DNA of 64,000 nucleotides from Nocardioides sp. (lineage in GTDB: Bacteria; Actinomycetota; Actinomycetes; Propionibacteriales; Nocardioidaceae). Positions within the stretch are counted from its first letter, which is position 1; every line of letters begins with the position of its first letter. The translations under genes and the position numbers were made by a program. Shown in pieces: positions 3,503 through 64,000 of this stretch. Below the pieces are notes generated by a model. The model was given only the letters and a program-made list of their open reading frames with translations. It made no database searches and was not told where the DNA came from. Location of the stretch: the NCBI GenBank assembly GCA_051657705.1, contig JBOFLE010000037.1, positions 22,033-86,032 on the forward strand, given 5' to 3'.

Positions 3503-3545
3503 CCCTTTCTCGTTCGCGAAGCGAGTCGACCGCGCGAGAAGGGCA

Positions 3546-3605
3546 GGTCTTCGATCGAGGCCCGCGGCAACATCTGATCCGCTCCGAAGGCCACTACCGA
3601 GGACC
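3546..3605 (-). promoter_or_regulatory. pnp 5' leader stem-loop (Actino-pnp-like motif, probable RNase III site)
   Basis: Imperfect inverted repeat GGTCTTCGATCGAGGCC...GGCCACTACCGAGGACC in the rpsO-pnp spacer. It resembles the known actinobacterial pnp leader hairpin (recognised from memory). Confidence 0.7.
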
Positions 3606-3660
3606 GTGCCGAACGTTTGCGGCCCGCTCCTGGTTTATTGACTTGGCTTGTCCCGCCGGC

Positions 3661-4081: not shown

Positions 4082-5182
4082 CTAGTCCGCGCCGACCCCG
4101 GTCCCCTCCGGCCCCGGAGACTCCACGACCGGCTTCTCGGATTCCTCCGACGGCACCGGTGAGGTGACTGCCGGGACCTTCAAGACATTCGGCGTCTGGA
4201 ACACCGGCTCCGGATCCGACCGGGTCTTCGAACCGAACGGGAAGACGTTCCACCGTTCGACGTCACCGAGCATCCAGGGCCGCTGTCGGGGCAGCCCGTC
4301 ACACTGGGCGTCGATCGGCCTTCCTTCCCTCGTGAACAGCTGGACCCCCTGAAGGGGGTCACCGTCCGCGTCATAGGGCTGGAGGTCGCAGATCCGTTGA
4401 CCGTTGTAGGTGAGCCCGTCGCGGTTGAGGGCGGGCCCGTAGCGGTCGACCGCTAGTGACGAGTAGTCGTTGTAGTTCTGGACTTCCGCGACGGCGGTCG
4501 GCCCGAGGAGTACCGCAAGCGAATTGAGGCCGAGCAGGACCAGGCGCTGGAACGTCGGACTGGGCCCGGACGTGTGACCGGGCCAGATCCGCCCTTGACC
4601 GATCCTGACCGAGATCACCACCGCGGCGAGCAGCACGAGGATGCCGATGAGCTGCCCGCCGATGCTGGGGATGAAGGTGCGCGGCCAGTTCCCGAACATC
4701 AGGTCAGCCACCTGGACTGCCACCCATGCGCGACACACCCACCACACGGGGCGCAGGACGACCAGGAAACTCCAGATGCCGTTCACGACTCCGGGCCGTG
4801 CCACGACACGCTCCCACCGGGCCCGCGAGCGGTCCAGCATCCCGGCGACATCCGGCAGCGCACGAGACCGCTCCGCGGGCTCGACCGCTGGCGGCAACCC
4901 GGCCGCGGCGCGAAGCTCGTCGGCGTAGGCCTCCGGCGTACCCACGATCATCTCGATCGAGACCTCGCCCTGGTGCGCCTGGACCTCTCCGTACTGGACC
5001 TCTCCGTACTGGACCTCTCCGGGCGGTTGCTGACCCCCGTGTTCGGCAACCAGCTCGGAGAGGTCGGCTTCGAGACCCTCGGTGAGCTCGTCGCGCACCT
5101 CGGGATCCAGATCGGACAGCCGGGCACGGACCCCGGCGACGAATACGGCGATCTCGGGCATCACATCGACGCTGGTGTTCAT
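4082..5182 (-). CDS. Membrane protein with N-terminal HAAS/DUF1700-like domain
   Basis: N-terminal helical motif [26 protein letters not shown]...[15 protein letters not shown] followed by hydrophobic helices; ATGA overlap with the PadR stop. Confidence 0.6.
4980..5021. repeat. 15-bp in-frame tandem repeat (2.8 copies), encoding [14 protein letters not shown]
   Basis: TGGACCTCTCCGTAC at 4980 and 4995, partial copy at 5010. Confidence 0.9.
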
Positions 5183-16396: not shown

Positions 16397-16531
16397 CGAG
16401 CTGGTTTCATGCTCTCGCACAAAACTGCATCTGCGCTCCTCACGGCAGCCGCAAGTTCGTGCAATGCAAATTCTCGCAATACTTGCCGCCAGCACGGCCA
16501 CCAGCTGGCGTGCGATCTTGTCCGGGCCGAC

Positions 16532-17257
16532 TCAGGACCAACCCTCCAGGATCGCCGTGATCTCGCTCAGCCGGCCGATCGTCGCGTCCGGCACTCCCGT
16601 CGAGTGCCCGAGCTGCTCGGCCGGAATAGCACTGTGCGGCACGTGGATCGCCCGCATCCCGACTGCCTGTGCCCCCCAGATGTCCTCGAATAGCCGGTCC
16701 CCGACGTAGACACAGCGACCGGGCTCATGCACGCCGACCGTGCTCATCGCCGCGGCGAAAGCTCGCGGCGAGGGCTTGGCATGTCCGAGTTCGCTGCTGT
16801 ACACGGCGCCGTCGATCAGTTCCGCCACGCCGTCGCGTTCGAAGATCCGGGTATGCGCCGCGGCCGGCCAGACGGTGTTGGAGAGCACACCGACTTTGAG
16901 TCCCCGATGCCGCAAGTCCTCAAAGAGTGGTCCTACCTCGGGATCGGTGTAGGTGTGCGATTCCCAGAACTCGTAGTACTCGGCCAGTAGGTCGACGTCG
17001 TGAGCCAGGCCGGCCTCGGCGAAGATGTCGCCGATCGTCGCGCTTCGCTGATGATCGCGGGACCGCGCCCACACTACCGAGTTCGCGGCTGCCAGCGCCT
17101 CCGCGTGACCGGACCGGGTCCGGCGATCCGTACCGGGCACGGCCGCGGCCAGCGCGTGTGCTTCGGCGGCGAAGTCGATGTCGTGCCACGGCGTCAGCGT
17201 GCCACCCCAGTCGAACAGCACCGCCGCGATCGCGCTGCCGGGATCAGCCGACGCCAC
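16532..17257 (-). CDS. HAD-superfamily hydrolase
   Basis: AVLFDWGGTLT (motif I variant), VLSNT, AKPSP, YVGDRLFEDI. Confidence 0.9.
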   Translation of the reverse strand: MASADPGSAIAAVLFDWGGTLTPWHDIDFAAEAHALAAAVPGTDRRTRSGHAEALAAANSVVWARSRDHQRSATIGDIFAEAGLAHDVDLLAEYYEFWESHTYTDPEVGPLFEDLRHRGLKVGVLSNTVWPAAAHTRIFERDGVAELIDGAVYSSELGHAKPSPRAFAAAMSTVGVHEPGRCVYVGDRLFEDIWGAQAVGMRAIHVPHSAIPAEQLGHSTGVPDATIGRLSEITAILEGWS

Positions 17258-17267
17258 CGGTCCGACT

Positions 17268-17528
17268 CGCTTCGCTCATCGTTGTTCTCTCGCTCGCAGT
17301 TCGAGCGCCGGGTCACGGTCGGTGGGAACGTGCAGACCGACGCGCTCTCTCGCGTCGCTCAGCCTCATTTTCTCGCTCGCAGTTCGAGCGGACCCTTGCC
17401 GTCGGCGTTCGGGTGCGGGCCGCCGCGCTCTCTCGCGTCGCTCAGCCTCATTTTCTCGCTCGCAGTTCGAGCGGACCCTTGCCGTCGGCGTTCGGGTGCG
17501 GGCCGCCGCGCTCTCTCGCGTCGCTCAG
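17268..17528 (-). repeat. 83-bp MIRU-like tandem repeat (2.3 identical copies plus one diverged copy); each unit is a mini-ORF
   Basis: Units start at 17341, 17424 and 17507 with identical sequence; a diverged unit covers ~17268-17340. Minus-strand ORFs: [28 protein letters not shown] (17451-17365), [30 protein letters not shown] (17368-17276), MSEASRTGGVG* (17279-17244). Confidence 0.9.
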
Positions 17529-19298
17529 GCCGACCTCGTTGAGCAGGCGCTGCACCGCGCTGGCCACCTCGATTTCGACACGCGTTCCGGAACGGCGGTC
17601 CTTGACATCGATCTTCCCCGCGGCCAGACCCCGTCCGACGGTGACGATCGTGGGCACCCCGATGAGTTCGGCGTCCTTGAACTTGACCCCGGGGCTGACC
17701 TTGCGTCGGTCGTCGTAGAGCACCACCACCCCATGCCGGCTCAACTCCGCGGCCAGGAGTTCCGCGGCCGCGAATACCGCGTCCTGCTTCCCGGTGGCTA
17801 CGATGATCAAGTCTGCCGGCGCGACCTCACGCGGCCAGCACAGCCCCCACTGGTCGTGAGTGTTCTCGGCGATCGCGGCTACCGCGCGAGAGGGCCCGAT
17901 GCCGTACGAGCCCATGGTGACCGTGACCAGCCGGCCGTTCTCGTCGAGGACCTGGAGACCGAGCGCCTCGGCGTACTTGGTCCCGAGCTGGAAGATGTGG
18001 CCCATCTCGATGCCGCGGGCGGTCTCCAGGAGCCCCTGGTCGCATTGCGGACACGGATCGCCGTCGCGCACCTCGGCTGCCTCGATGGTTCCGTCCGGCG
18101 CGAAGTCGCGACCGGCCACGAGATCGAGCACGTGGCTGCCGGCCAGATCCGCTCCGGTCACCCAGCTGGTCCCGGTCGCGACACGGGGGTCGACCAGATA
18201 GCGAATACCGGTCAAGCCCGACTCCCCCAGCGTTGCCGGGCCGATGTACCCCTTCACGAGCGCCGGATGCCGGTCGAACTCCACGTCGCCCATCGGTTCG
18301 ACCTCGATCGGCTCGAGCCGACCCTCGAGTCGCTTCTGATCCACTTCCCGATCGCCGGGAAGGCCGATCGCGAGCGGCACCCTGGTGCCGTCGGGGTGCT
18401 TCAACATCACCAGGACGTTCTTCAGGGTGTCACCGGCGACCCAGTCACGGTCGGCGCGCGGGAAATGCTCGTTCAGGTGGCCTACCAGGGTGTCGATGGT
18501 GGGAGTATCCGGCGTCTTCTCTACCCGGGCTTCCGGCAGGGATGCGATCTCGACGGCCGACAATGCCGCCGGTGGCCGGACCCGCACCGCCTCCACGTTG
18601 GCGGCATAGTCACAGTTCCCGCACCGGACATAGGTGTCTTCGCCCGCGTCCGCTCGGGCGAGGAACTCCTCGCTCCCGGATCCTCCCATGGCGCCCGAGG
18701 TCGCCTTGACGATCGTGTAGTCGAAACCGAGCCGGTCGAAGATCCTGATGTAGGCGGCACGATGGGCCGCGTACGACTTCTGCAGCCCCGCGTCGTCGAT
18801 GTCGAACGAGTAGGAGTCCTTCATCACGAACTCCCGGCCTCGCAGGAGACCTGCGCGGGGCCGCGCCTCGTCGCGGTACTTGGTCTGAATCTGATAGATC
18901 GACAGCGGCAGGTCCTTGTACGACGAGTAGAGGTCCTTCACCAGCAAGGTGAACATCTCCTCGTGCGTGGGCCCCAGCAGGTAGTCGTTGTCCTTGCGAT
19001 CGGTGAGCCGGAACAACCCCGAGCCGTACTCGGTCCAGCGCCCGGTGGCCTCATAGGGCTCGCGAGGCAGAAGCGCCGGGAAGTGAACCTCCTGAGCACC
19101 CATCGCGTCCATCTCGTCACGAATGATCTGCTCGATCCTGCGGAGCACTCGATAGCCGAGCGGCAGCCAGGAGTACAGACCCGGCGCGACCCGCCGGATG
19201 TATCCGGCACGGACCAGCAGGCGGTGACTCGGCACCTCGGCATCGGCCGGGTCATCGCGCAGCGTACGGACGAACAAGGTCGACATGCGCAAGATCAT
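17448..19298 (-). CDS. proS: Proline--tRNA ligase (with editing domain)
   Basis: [25 protein letters not shown]; LGPTHEE; FRDEARPR-like [17 protein letters not shown]; [11 protein letters not shown]; MGSYGIG. The start was corrected from the ORF track to ATG 19298. Confidence 0.97.
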
Positions 19299-60953: not shown

Positions 60954-63900
60954 ATGGAGATCACGGAACAACCTGTCGACCCCGCCGTTGACCCTACTGT
61001 TGACCCCGCCGCCGAACGGGCCGTCGAGCGGGCGGTCGAGTGTGCCGAGCGGCTGTTGCGGCGAGCGATCCAACTCGATCGCGAAACCGGCCTCCGGCAG
61101 CGGCGCCGGCGCTCTCGGCTGGCGTCCCTGATCGGCAGTCCGCGGACGGCCGCGCTGGCCCGTGGCCTCACCGACCAGGTGCTTCGGATCGACGATCCGG
61201 CCGTGGCCGCGACCCGCTTCTCATCGGTGGTGCGGGACGCCTCCCTGACCGACCTGGGCACCACCGATCGCCTCCTGCTCCGCGCCGCGGCCGGGCTGGC
61301 CCCGGCGGCTCCCCGGGTGGTGATGCCGCTGGTGCTCAGACGGTTGCGCGACGAGTCGGCCGACGCCGTCGTGCTGGATCGCGAGCCCGAAATCGGCCGG
61401 TACCTGGCCCGCCGGCGAGCCGCAGAGGATGGCTTGCGGGGCAACGTCAACGTGCTGGGCGAAGCCATCCTCGGCCCGGCCGAAGCCGAGCGCCGACTGA
61501 CCCAGATCGAGACCGTCATCGCACGGCCCGAAGTCGACTACGTGTCGGTCAAGATCTCCGCGATCTGCTCCCGGATCAACGTCCTTGCCTTCGACGCCAC
61601 CGTCGAGACGGCCGGCGACGCATTGCGCCGGATCTATCGCGCCGCCATGGCGGCACGTCCCCGGGTCTTCGTCAACGTCGACATGGAGGAGTACCGGGAT
61701 CTCGAGCTGACCGTGGCGGCCTACCTCCGGGTACTGTCCGAGCCGGAGTTCCTCCGGCTCCCGACCGGGATCGTGATCCAGGCCTACCTGCCGGACGCAC
61801 ACGGGGTCGCCCGCGAACTCTGCGAGTTCGCCAGGGTCCGGGCCGGGCGTGGCGGCGCGCCGATCAAGGTGCGGTTGGTCAAGGGCGCGAACCTGGCCAT
61901 GGAACTGGTCGAAGCGGAGATGCATGGCTGGCTGTCGGCGCCGTACCCGACGAAGGCACAGGTCGATGCCAGCTACAAGCTCCTGCTGGAGACCCTGCTC
62001 GACGAACGCTACGACGACTCCGTGCGGGTCGGCGTCGCCAGCCAGAATCTCTTCGACGTGGCCTGGGCGATCGGTCTGCGAGAAGAACTGGCCGGCCGCG
62101 GTCAGGCGGATCGGATGGGCTTCGAGATGCTCGAAGGCATGGCACCCGGGCAAGCCCGAGCGATCGCCGAGGCCGTGGGCGAGGTGGTGCTCTACACCCC
62201 CGTGGTGCGGCCCGACGACTTCACCGCCGCGATCGCCTATCTGGTGCGGCGGCTGGACGAGAACACCGCTCCGGACAACTACCTGAGGTCGGTGTTCGAG
62301 ATCGCCCCGGGCAACGAGGTCTTCCGCCGTGAGGCCGCGCGTTTCCGGACCGCCGTCCGCGATCGACGGTCGGTCTCGACCGACCCGCGGCGTGGTCTCG
62401 ATCTCGTCGTGGCGCCGGGCGCCGCCGACCACCTGGTCACCTTCGACAGCTTCCGCAACGCGGCCGACACCGACCTCACCTCGGCTGCCGGCCGAGCGCG
62501 GATCGCCGCCGCCATCGACACCGCCATCGACACCATCCGGGATCGCGAACCCGGGTCGACGCAACGCCGTGTCGGCATCGCCGAGGTGAACGCGGCCGTC
62601 CACGCCGGCCGGACGGCACAACCGGCATGGGCGGCGTTGCCGCTCCCGGAGCGAGCGCGCCTGGTGGCAGCCGTCGGCGACGTGGTTGCCCGGCGTCGAC
62701 CGGAGATCATCGCGACGATGGCCCATGAGGCGGGAAAGATCGTCGCCGAAGGCGACCCCGAGGTGTCGGAGGCGATCGACTTCGCGCGGTGGTACGCCGC
62801 CGCGGTGCGCCAGTTGGAGCATCGCCGTTCGACCGGCGCACCGGGCCGGTCCGGCGAGGCTCCCACCGATAGCGGGATCGGCGTGGTCGTGATCGCGCCT
62901 CCGTGGAACTTCCCGTTCGCGATTGCCCTGGGCGGCGCCCTGGCGGCCCTGGCGGCGGGCAATGCGGTGGTGTTGAAGCCGGCCCCGCAGACGCCGCTGA
63001 CCGGGCGCCTGGTGGCCGAGTGCTGTTGGGAGGCGGGCATCCCTCGCGACGCGATCCAGTTCCTGCGCTGTGCCGAGGACGAGGCCGGCCGGGCCCTGAT
63101 CACCCATGACGACGTATCCGCGGTGGTGCTCACCGGCGCACGTGCCACCGCCGACCTGTTCCACTCCTGGAAGCCCTCGCTCAGGCTCCTGGGCGAGACC
63201 AGCGGCAAGAACTCGATGGTGATCACCGCAGCGGCCGACCTCGAACTGGCGGTCAAGGACCTCGTGCGCTCCGCCTTCGGGCACGCCGGCCAGAAGTGTT
63301 CGGCCGCCAGCCTGGCCATCGTCGAGGAGTCCGTCCTCACCGGCACCACATTCCTCGACCGGCTGGCGGACGCGACCAGGAACCTGGTCACCGGTCCGGC
63401 CCGTCTGGCGACGACCGATATCGGGCCGCTGATCGAACCGCCGTCGGATCAGCTCCGCCGCGCGCTCGGCGTCCTGGGTGCCGGCGAATCCTGGTTGGTG
63501 CGGCCACAGTGCCTGAACGAGGATGAGACGCTCTGGTCTCCCGGCATCCGGACGGGTGTGCGACCCGGCTCCTGGTTCCACCTCACCGAGTGCTTCGGCC
63601 CGGTCCTCGGCATCCTCGCGGCAGACGACCTCGACCATGCGATCGAGTTGCAGAACGCGCCGGCTTACGGCCTGACCGCCGGGCTACACAGCCTGGACCC
63701 AGGCCAGATCCGGCAGTGGGTCGACCGGGCCGAGGCCGGGAACCTCTACGTCAACCGGACCACCACCGGCGCGATCGTCGGCCGGCAGCCGTTCGGCGGT
63801 TGGAAGCGGTCAGCGGTCGGCCCGACCGCGAAAGCGGGCGGCCGGCACTATGTGGATGCCCTCTGCACATGGGGGGAGGGCGCATGGGGGGAGGGCGCAT

Positions 63901-64000
63901 GGAGGGAGGGCGCATGGGAGGCCGACGGGGCCGTTCAATCGGTCGGGGCCGGCTACCGGGCCTGGGCGACCGAACACCTCGATACCGAGAGCGACGCGCA
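60954..64000 (+). CDS. putA: Bifunctional proline dehydrogenase/glutamate-semialdehyde dehydrogenase PutA, 3' end outside window
   Basis: Manual translation from ATG 60954: NVNVLGEAILG, DMEEYRDL, VRLVKGANL, LYTPVV, AYLVRRLDEN, PWNFP, ETSGKN, GHAGQKCSA, ECFGPV, QPFGGWKRS. Confidence 0.93.
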   Translation, partial: MEITEQPVDPAVDPTVDPAAERAVERAVECAERLLRRAIQLDRETGLRQRRRRSRLASLIGSPRTAALARGLTDQVLRIDDPAVAATRFSSVVRDASLTDLGTTDRLLLRAAAGLAPAAPRVVMPLVLRRLRDESADAVVLDREPEIGRYLARRRAAEDGLRGNVNVLGEAILGPAEAERRLTQIETVIARPEVDYVSVKISAICSRINVLAFDATVETAGDALRRIYRAAMAARPRVFVNVDMEEYRDLELTVAAYLRVLSEPEFLRLPTGIVIQAYLPDAHGVARELCEFARVRAGRGGAPIKVRLVKGANLAMELVEAEMHGWLSAPYPTKAQVDASYKLLLETLLDERYDDSVRVGVASQNLFDVAWAIGLREELAGRGQADRMGFEMLEGMAPGQARAIAEAVGEVVLYTPVVRPDDFTAAIAYLVRRLDENTAPDNYLRSVFEIAPGNEVFRREAARFRTAVRDRRSVSTDPRRGLDLVVAPGAADHLVTFDSFRNAADTDLTSAAGRARIAAAIDTAIDTIRDREPGSTQRRVGIAEVNAAVHAGRTAQPAWAALPLPERARLVAAVGDVVARRRPEIIATMAHEAGKIVAEGDPEVSEAIDFARWYAAAVRQLEHRRSTGAPGRSGEAPTDSGIGVVVIAPPWNFPFAIALGGALAALAAGNAVVLKPAPQTPLTGRLVAECCWEAGIPRDAIQFLRCAEDEAGRALITHDDVSAVVLTGARATADLFHSWKPSLRLLGETSGKNSMVITAAADLELAVKDLVRSAFGHAGQKCSAASLAIVEESVLTGTTFLDRLADATRNLVTGPARLATTDIGPLIEPPSDQLRRALGVLGAGESWLVRPQCLNEDETLWSPGIRTGVRPGSWFHLTECFGPVLGILAADDLDHAIELQNAPAYGLTAGLHSLDPGQIRQWVDRAEAGNLYVNRTTTGAIVGRQPFGGWKRSAVGPTAKAGGRHYVDALCTWGEGAWGEGAWREGAWEADGAVQSVGAGYRAWATEHLDTESDA
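63868..63920 (+). repeat. 15-bp G-rich in-frame repeat (3.5 copies), encoding WGEGA-WGEGA-WREGA-WE
   Basis: CATGGGGGGAGGGCG at 63868 and 63883, variant at 63898, partial at 63913. Confidence 0.9.

Follow-up and report, generated by a model that had tools for sequence, protein, structure and literature searches.

What is a short tandem repeat doing between two genes whose counterparts in related genomes overlap by four nucleotides? The question is raised by a 64,000-nt stretch of Nocardioides sp. DNA (contig JBOFLE010000037.1; "the window" below means this whole stretch), in which an array of 83-nt units lies on the minus strand between proS, encoding prolyl-tRNA synthetase, and the gene of a HAD-IA family hydrolase. 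An initial annotation, made from the letters of the window, had proposed a chain of small overlapping reading frames that would relay translation from proS to the hydrolase, on an element analogous to the MIRUs (mycobacterial interspersed repetitive units). Our analysis favours an extended form of this proposal. With a probability that we would put at about 60%, the array is a member of a dispersed family of 84-nt repeats of the Nocardioidaceae that occupies the stop/start junctions of operons and behaves there much as MIRUs do.

Tandem Repeats Finder places the array at 17266-17528 on the minus strand, with a period of 83, 3.2 copies and a score of 288. Its units, which share two conserved boxes (A and B, set out below) around a variable core, and the small open reading frames (ORFs) that run through them are the following.

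17446 to 17528, minus strand: repeat unit 1, which begins CTGAGCGAC, is joined to proS in the same frame; the proS stop, contained in ...AAAATGA, closes it (delimited with Tandem Repeats Finder).
17363 to 17445, minus strand: repeat unit 2, equal to unit 1 save for one base at the junction.
17280 to 17362, minus strand: repeat unit 3, with boxes as in units 1 and 2 and a core of another subtype (VGLHV type).
17266 to 17279, minus strand: truncated unit 4, ATGAGCGAAGCGAG, a 14-nt stub in register with the array and equal to the 5' end of box A in the family consensus.
17451 to 17365, minus strand: relay ORF 1, 28 codons or 87 nt, whose ATG overlaps the proS TGA as ATGA (17451-17448).
17368 to 17276, minus strand: relay ORF 2, 30 codons, overlapping its neighbours as ATGA at either end (17368-17365 and 17279-17276).
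17279 to 17244, minus strand: relay ORF 3, 11 codons (MSEASRTGGVG), which begins with truncated unit 4 and stops at TGA 17246-17244.

Units 1 and 2 differ at only one of 83 positions. Between units 2 and 3 there are 20 differences in 83 positions, 17 of them in the 33-nt core and three in the tail; the earlier observation that the diverged unit varies at about half of its core and keeps both its length and its open frame is borne out by this comparison. Unit 1 matches the model of the wider family with E=4e-15 in nhmmer. Two 20-mers had been named as probes for further copies. Each occurs exactly three times in the array, at 83-nt spacing, with no other occurrence in the window at up to three mismatches, and three matches were reached in 0 of 100 shuffles in a control on the counts; as tools for a wider census, however, they proved specific to this window.

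The 83-nt period is that of an 87-nt ORF less a 4-nt ATGA overlap, an arithmetic that holds on the sequence, and the ORF positions agree with the chain that had been described, from the proS stop through frames of 28, 30 and 11 codons into the HAD GTG. At the last of these links the overlap is of 14 nt: the HAD GTG lies at 17257-17255 and the stop of relay ORF 3 falls 11 nt downstream of it.

Comparison with related genomes indicates how the junction looked before the array was there. The two genes that flank it in the window are these.

17448 to 19298, minus strand: proS (prolyl-tRNA synthetase), 616 aa, with its TGA at 17450-17448; its last 24 or so codons (from about 17522 down) come from unit 1.
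16532 to 17257, minus strand: HAD-IA family hydrolase, 241 aa, with a GTG start and matches to NCBIfam HAD entries.

The closest ProS homologues, which come from metagenome-assembled genomes (MAGs) and genomes of Nocardioides, Marmoricola and Nocardioidaceae, are 83-84% identical and 588-592 aa in length, and their C-termini fall at about the start of the repeat. The gene order ispG, GNAT/DUF4081, proS, HAD, DUF4439 (on the opposite strand), rimP, nusA is common to two relatives (L002 and L003), and in both of these the proS stop and the HAD start share 4 nt (tcATGAgt and cgGTGAgc), without any spacer between the genes. Since the relatives have this spacer-free overlap, the array is inserted DNA, about 280 nt long, in a junction that was translationally coupled, and the earlier idea of an insertion inside an operon gains support from the same comparison. 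Promoter-like or terminator-like sites were found nowhere in 16400-18000, which is consistent with co-transcription of proS, the array and the HAD gene.

Short direct repeats flank the array.

17525 to 17534, minus strand: direct repeat on the left flank, GTCGGC(C)TGA, where proS and the array meet, read from the sequence.
17244 to 17252, minus strand: direct repeat on the right flank, GTCGGCTGA, immediately preceding the body of the HAD coding sequence; relay ORF 3 stops at its TGA.

The TGA of the right-hand repeat aligns with the ancestral stop/start overlap of the relatives. The pair may represent a target-site duplication or microhomology. Short repeats flank family members elsewhere as well (CTTGTG at the locus L013 introduced below, ATGAGC at nuoD/nuoE), and all of these, the pair in the window included, are of unequal lengths and possibly reflect chance or the sequence of the units themselves.

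Two observations on the same genes in other genomes may be recorded here. In the close relative L004 (GCA_021731205.1, JAKFXV010000135.1; positions 4780-4941) no HAD gene follows proS: a 160-nt spacer leads to a convergent DUF4439 gene, so that the pairing of proS with HAD is not universal in the group. The ProS homologue P0002 (681 aa, on a 2.6-kb ENA contig) contains an internal duplication of about 90 residues, with YSWLPLGLRVLR...FTLVVKDLY present twice, which is probably either a chimera formed when two strains were assembled together or a genuine tandem duplication.

Units of the same kind are found at other loci. The box B 20-mer of the window gave a single match among 185,579 species genomes, antisense within an aldehyde dehydrogenase gene of Actinomadura, and this was rejected as a family copy, being a chance match inside a gene. 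The box A 20-mer gave 14 matches in JGI metagenomes, of which only one (L013) has a full unit, the rest being box A alone. As the box B 20-mer is window-specific, the family-wide box GCGCTCGAACTGCGAGCTC is the better search pattern. Scans of viral contigs with the family boxes gave only one chance match, in a phage portal gene. Most members were found instead by searching with the peptide that the unit would encode, a search that sees only copies in this frame within called genes: among 1.84 billion representatives, 25 protein clusters contain a unit at E<=0.001. The peptide, MSEARER[G/V/F/I]G-(variable)-ALELRAH(Q)EE, has 28 residues and occurs as dimers of 55-59 aa, as singles of 29-32 aa and in N-terminal and C-terminal fusions, the N-terminal ones including fusions to a permease-like and to an amidohydrolase fragment. 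Neither Pfam nor NCBIfam holds a family that matches the unit peptides.

Where the DNA around such units could be inspected, they resemble the window in their placement. The unit of L013, a metagenome contig, is a single full copy between rmuC and a DUF6542 membrane-protein gene and is co-oriented with them; its GTGA start lies over the rmuC stop and its frame runs on without a stop into the gene downstream. Six contigs from six samples have dimers between nuoD and nuoE, with 4-nt overlaps on both sides, and by gene layout the gene upstream of the dimer P0125 also overlaps it by 4 nt. The dimer of L025 is joined to its downstream gene by ATGA, again a 4-nt overlap, and has a divergently oriented gene upstream. 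Before its first full unit, at 373-435, lies a called ORF of 78 aa in which a stretch resembling box B (ACGCTCGAACCGTGAGC) follows, at 63 nt, an ATGAGC of the ORF's own; this looks like a decayed third unit. One Nocardioides sp. MAG has four family members, each on a contig of its own, so that the element appears to be multi-copy within a genome. The original inference of an element that inserts inside operons is supported by these further junctions, rmuC/DUF6542 and nuoD/nuoE among them, at which the genes are co-oriented, the overlaps are of 4 nt and the reading phase is unchanged.

The 11 distinct units for which DNA is available align without internal gaps, the unit being 84 nt or, in the window, 83 nt plus ATGA. 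Four segments can be distinguished in the alignment.

Columns 1-26: box A, nTGAGCGAAGCGAGAGAGCGCGGCGG, that is a start codon followed by TGAGCGAAGCGAGAGAGCGCGGCGG; essentially invariant.
Between the boxes: the variable core, of about 28-33 nt and constant length, with a few subtypes.
Columns 55-74: box B, GCGCTCGAACTGCGAGCTCA; essentially invariant and partly complementary to box A.
3' of box B: the tail, purine-rich and in canonical copies a strong Shine-Dalgarno site that ends in ATGA.

Because the canonical unit of 84 nt is exactly 28 codons, arrays elsewhere read through as one ORF of 55-57 aa. The tail of the window units (GAGAAAATGAGG) is 1 nt shorter than the canonical one, which produces the stop/restart ATGA and puts the next ORF back in the family frame. 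The window units also share GAC in place of GAA in box A with the unit of L013.

The cores show how such arrays turn over. The nuoD/nuoE contigs are of three kinds, with flanks 94-98% identical and a third-position divergence of 6-13%, and despite this their boxes differ at no more than one of 41 positions. The arrays of these three close relatives, of two units each, can be written [X,Y], [Y,Y] and [X',X'], a pattern that on sequence grounds is one of whole-unit duplication, loss or conversion, typical of minisatellite turnover. In the window the core of unit 2 is nearest to the units of L025 (10 of 33 positions different) and that of unit 3 to a unit at another locus, L019a (11 of 33); between themselves the two cores differ at 16 of 33. 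As each is nearer to other loci, unit 3 is better regarded as a different subtype than as a copy that diverged in place, the view originally taken of it; the subtypes of both cores are common to elements at other loci, and the peptide subtypes GGPHP..., xGLH[VP]... and GGR[DN]... each recur at many.

The family frame is open in every unit except for the ATGA stop of the window's own units, and frame +2 holds the TGA of ATGA. Variability in the core by codon position is 0.32/0.28/0.23, with no excess at third positions, and the G+C content at third codon positions (GC3) is 0.65-0.78 in the units against 0.86 in proS and 0.81 in HAD. The lack of a third-position excess and the lower GC3 together suggest that the ORF is kept open while the peptide itself is apparently unselected, as would be expected of a relay. 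Ribosome-binding sites differ between canonical and window copies. Before nuoE, the canonical tail (CAGGAGGAAAAATGA) has a pairing energy of -10.3 kcal/mol with the anti-Shine-Dalgarno sequence, which falls within the top 5% of the window background, whereas the starts in the window array and the HAD GTG reach only -4.9 to -5.5 kcal/mol, the mean of the background being -4.2. In the two relatives the HAD gene's own starts are also weak in this respect (-4.2 and -6.6). With pairing at background level at the array and HAD starts, translation of HAD should depend mainly on ribosomes arriving from upstream.

From this layout we infer that the array is translated, that ribosomes reinitiate along it and couple the genes on either side, that the element is mobile and that its copy number affects HAD expression. 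In the relay that we propose, a unit would place its start codon over the upstream stop or fuse to the upstream gene, and ribosomes ending that gene would stop on the unit or read into it and restart at the overlapping ATG or GTG. The unit would then be translated through its open, phased frame, with termination on an ATGA that holds the next start, and its ribosome-binding tail and ATGA would be set on the downstream start. Being phased with translation, the element should leave translational coupling unbroken and cause no polarity after insertion. In the window, the ancestral 4-nt proS/HAD overlap would have been split by three units and the 14-nt stub, giving a chain from proS, extended by unit 1, through ORFs of 28, 30 and 11 codons to HAD, with three ATGA reinitiations and the 14-nt overlap. 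Each extra link should pass somewhat fewer ribosomes, so that the length of the array could set the HAD:ProS ratio. A bolder version of this model, which we put forward tentatively and with the odds somewhat against it, is that these are independently evolved, translation-phased mobile minisatellites that specifically colonise the ATGA/GTGA overlaps of operons, with the boxes serving as recognition sites for a trans-acting enzyme and the length and subtype of the array setting the ratio of translation of the flanking genes.

Several points weigh against a dispersed, junction-phased family. The 64-kb window holds a single array, and nhmmer found no further diverged copies of it there (best E 0.22). 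The downstream end of that array is imperfect, with a 14-nt overlap in another frame and no ATGA, and the number of its two identical units may be an assembly estimate. At proS/HAD, comparison with relatives whose ProS is only about 83% identical established no clear target-site duplication. Nor are all copies situated within operons, since the L025 dimer follows a divergently oriented gene. The frame statistics of the family are biased, because the peptide search sees only in-frame copies in called genes, and the DNA context is that of only about five independent loci. Finally, we estimate that a 28-codon frame is free of stops by chance more than half the time at about 70% GC, and several other frames of the units are open.

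Among the other explanations, the one that we take most seriously, unlikely as it seems on balance, is that of a palindromic nucleic-acid element of the REP/BIME, ERIC, Correia or MITE type, in which the box hairpin would be an mRNA stabiliser, an RNase III/E site setting the proS:HAD ratio or a site for a single-stranded DNA transposase. The open frame and ATGA ends would then be only a survival filter, so that this view overlaps the relay rather than opposing it. The RNAalifold consensus contains a box A/box B helix of 15 pairs in which 95% of cells are paired, against 14-53% with a slid partner; several family units have this hairpin as their minimum-free-energy fold; and the invariance of the boxes even at third codon positions, where the flanks have diverged by 6-13%, points to constraint at the level of nucleotides. 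Yet the helix lacks covariation, as its paired columns never vary, and its inverted-repeat arms match at just 11 of 20 positions. Fold energies are mostly those of shuffled sequence (z from +0.5 to -1.2, with one unit at -2.3 and the whole window array at -0.35), the window units have lost the outer stem (GAG against TCA) and do not fold as the box hairpin, and Rfam gave no match at the array, either at the gathering threshold or at E<=1. A separate stem within the core (columns 23-27 with 40-44), described by the initial annotation as compensated (TCGGT/ACCGA versus CGGC/GCCG), was rejected: across the 11 family units 56% of its cells are paired, which equals the shuffled controls.

True distant homology to mycobacterial MIRUs, through inheritance or transfer within Actinomycetota, is in our view improbable. 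Both families have tandem units of 53-87 nt with ATGA overlaps and an ORF that is 4 nt longer than the period, and the motif GAGCG(A/C)AGCGA(T)GAG is shared, in the same orientation, with MIRU292 of Mycobacterium avium subsp. paratuberculosis, whose published 53-bp unit reads as a 57-nt ORF with ATGA ends. The peptides are unrelated, however, the hosts belong to different orders, and local alignment to MIRU292, the one MIRU sequence compared, gave scores that fall inside the range of shuffled sequences or close to it (p about 0.01-0.13 by unit, in the matching orientation); that alignment is not significant, in keeping with the earlier expectation that the element would be distinct in sequence. 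We give very little credence to the idea that the units encode functional small proteins or terminal extensions, built on a 28-residue SEARER...ALELRAH module. A consensus does extend over some 40 units, with the core [GVIF]-G-[LPR]-H-[PV]-x-[AT]-[HD]-[RG]-E-G-A, and gene callers annotate the dimers as hypothetical proteins; against this stand the absence of a third-position excess, a GC3 below that of real genes, the conservation of the boxes at the nucleotide level, the lack of any Pfam or NCBIfam match and the attachment of the module to unrelated proteins at either terminus, when it does not occur alone. Least credible of all is the view that the array is of local origin only, whether through tandem duplication of the 3' end of proS where it stands or as an artefact of assembly, and that no wider family exists. 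It would account for the two identical copies, for the lack of another copy in the window and for a box B 20-mer that occurs only by chance in 185,579 species genomes. As regards the family, though, it is already contradicted by the sequences compared: units with shared boxes lie at other loci and in other organisms, family dimers were assembled independently in four samples, and in the relatives there is no spacer that could have given rise to a local duplication.

Three features elsewhere in the window were noted in passing. An Actino-pnp RNA (RF01688) lies at 3543-3608 on the minus strand (53.2 bits against a gathering threshold of 47.7), as expected for the leader of a polynucleotide phosphorylase gene. 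At 4979-5021 a perfect 15-nt tandem repeat of 2.9 copies forms an in-frame coding minisatellite within a 366-aa membrane-protein ORF (4082-5182, minus strand). The G-rich 15-nt tandem repeat CATGGGGGGAGGGCG at 63868-63918 has 3.4 copies at 94% identity, and its G runs could form a G-quadruplex.

MIRUs have been studied almost solely as typing markers in slow-growing pathogens and, to our knowledge, their spread and their precise placement at start codons have remained unresolved since 1997. A second family, unrelated in sequence, phased to junctions in the same way and living in soil Nocardioides, would offer a comparative handle on them: the traits common to both (phase, ATGA ends and co-orientation) are likely to be the part under selection. 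The literature that we searched, with incomplete coverage, yielded no description of a MIRU-like element outside mycobacteria, nor did Rfam, Pfam or NCBIfam. If the bolder version put forward above is true, the MIRU lifestyle would be no peculiarity of mycobacteria but that of a general class of selfish DNA at operon junctions in Actinomycetota. There are practical consequences too, since such units distort annotation through spurious hypothetical proteins of 55-57 aa and false N- or C-terminal extensions, of which the 616-aa ProS of the window (P0001) is an example, while chained relay ORFs would provide natural examples for the study of termination-reinitiation.

It remains to set the element beside known systems. 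MIRUs are described as mobile repeats that insert at start codons, with an ORF coupled to the gene at a spacing of -4 (PMC12548453); they are frequent in 5' untranslated regions or operon spacers, and their units of 53-77 bp are inserted at start codons with little expected effect on expression (Supply et al. 1997, summarised in PMC12548453 and PMC4128351), as would be expected of the units here. Like them, the present family consists of short tandem units (here of 83-84 nt, with singles and dimers) that lie between co-oriented genes in the same orientation, and the small ORF of each unit overlaps the neighbouring stop or start by 4 nt, so that the period is that of the ORF minus 4. It differs in its host, which to judge by the ProS homologues belongs to the Nocardioidaceae and not to Mycobacterium; in a canonical unit of exactly 28 codons, the arrays of which are usually one read-through ORF, the ATGA chain of the window being a variant 1 nt shorter; and in having two invariant boxes with partial dyad symmetry, a subtyped core and a strong Shine-Dalgarno tail of its own. 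The element would thus work like a MIRU but we do not class it as one: it appears to be a sequence-distinct analogue, and apparently an undescribed one. With relay upstream ORFs and the 'bicistronic design' (PMC12548453) it would share a short ORF that serves only to deliver a terminating ribosome to an overlapping start, the difference being that here the relay ORF is carried on a repeated, chainable and apparently mobile element. REP/BIME, ERIC, Correia and MITE-like elements are short, dispersed, co-transcribed in operons and equipped with hairpin-capable inverted-repeat arms, as this family would be, but they are not phased with flanking stops and starts and carry no relay ORF; the arms here are poor (11/20), and no partner transposase is known. 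The Rickettsia palindromic elements (RPEs) of Ogata et al. (2000), reportedly of about 100-150 bp and situated within coding regions, provide a last parallel. They are palindromic selfish repeats that survive in translated sequence by virtue of an open frame, as the copies fused here to the C-terminus of ProS and to other termini would; the present units, by contrast, lie at gene termini and junctions, no internal insertion having been seen, and supply both the stop/start overlaps and a ribosome-binding site.

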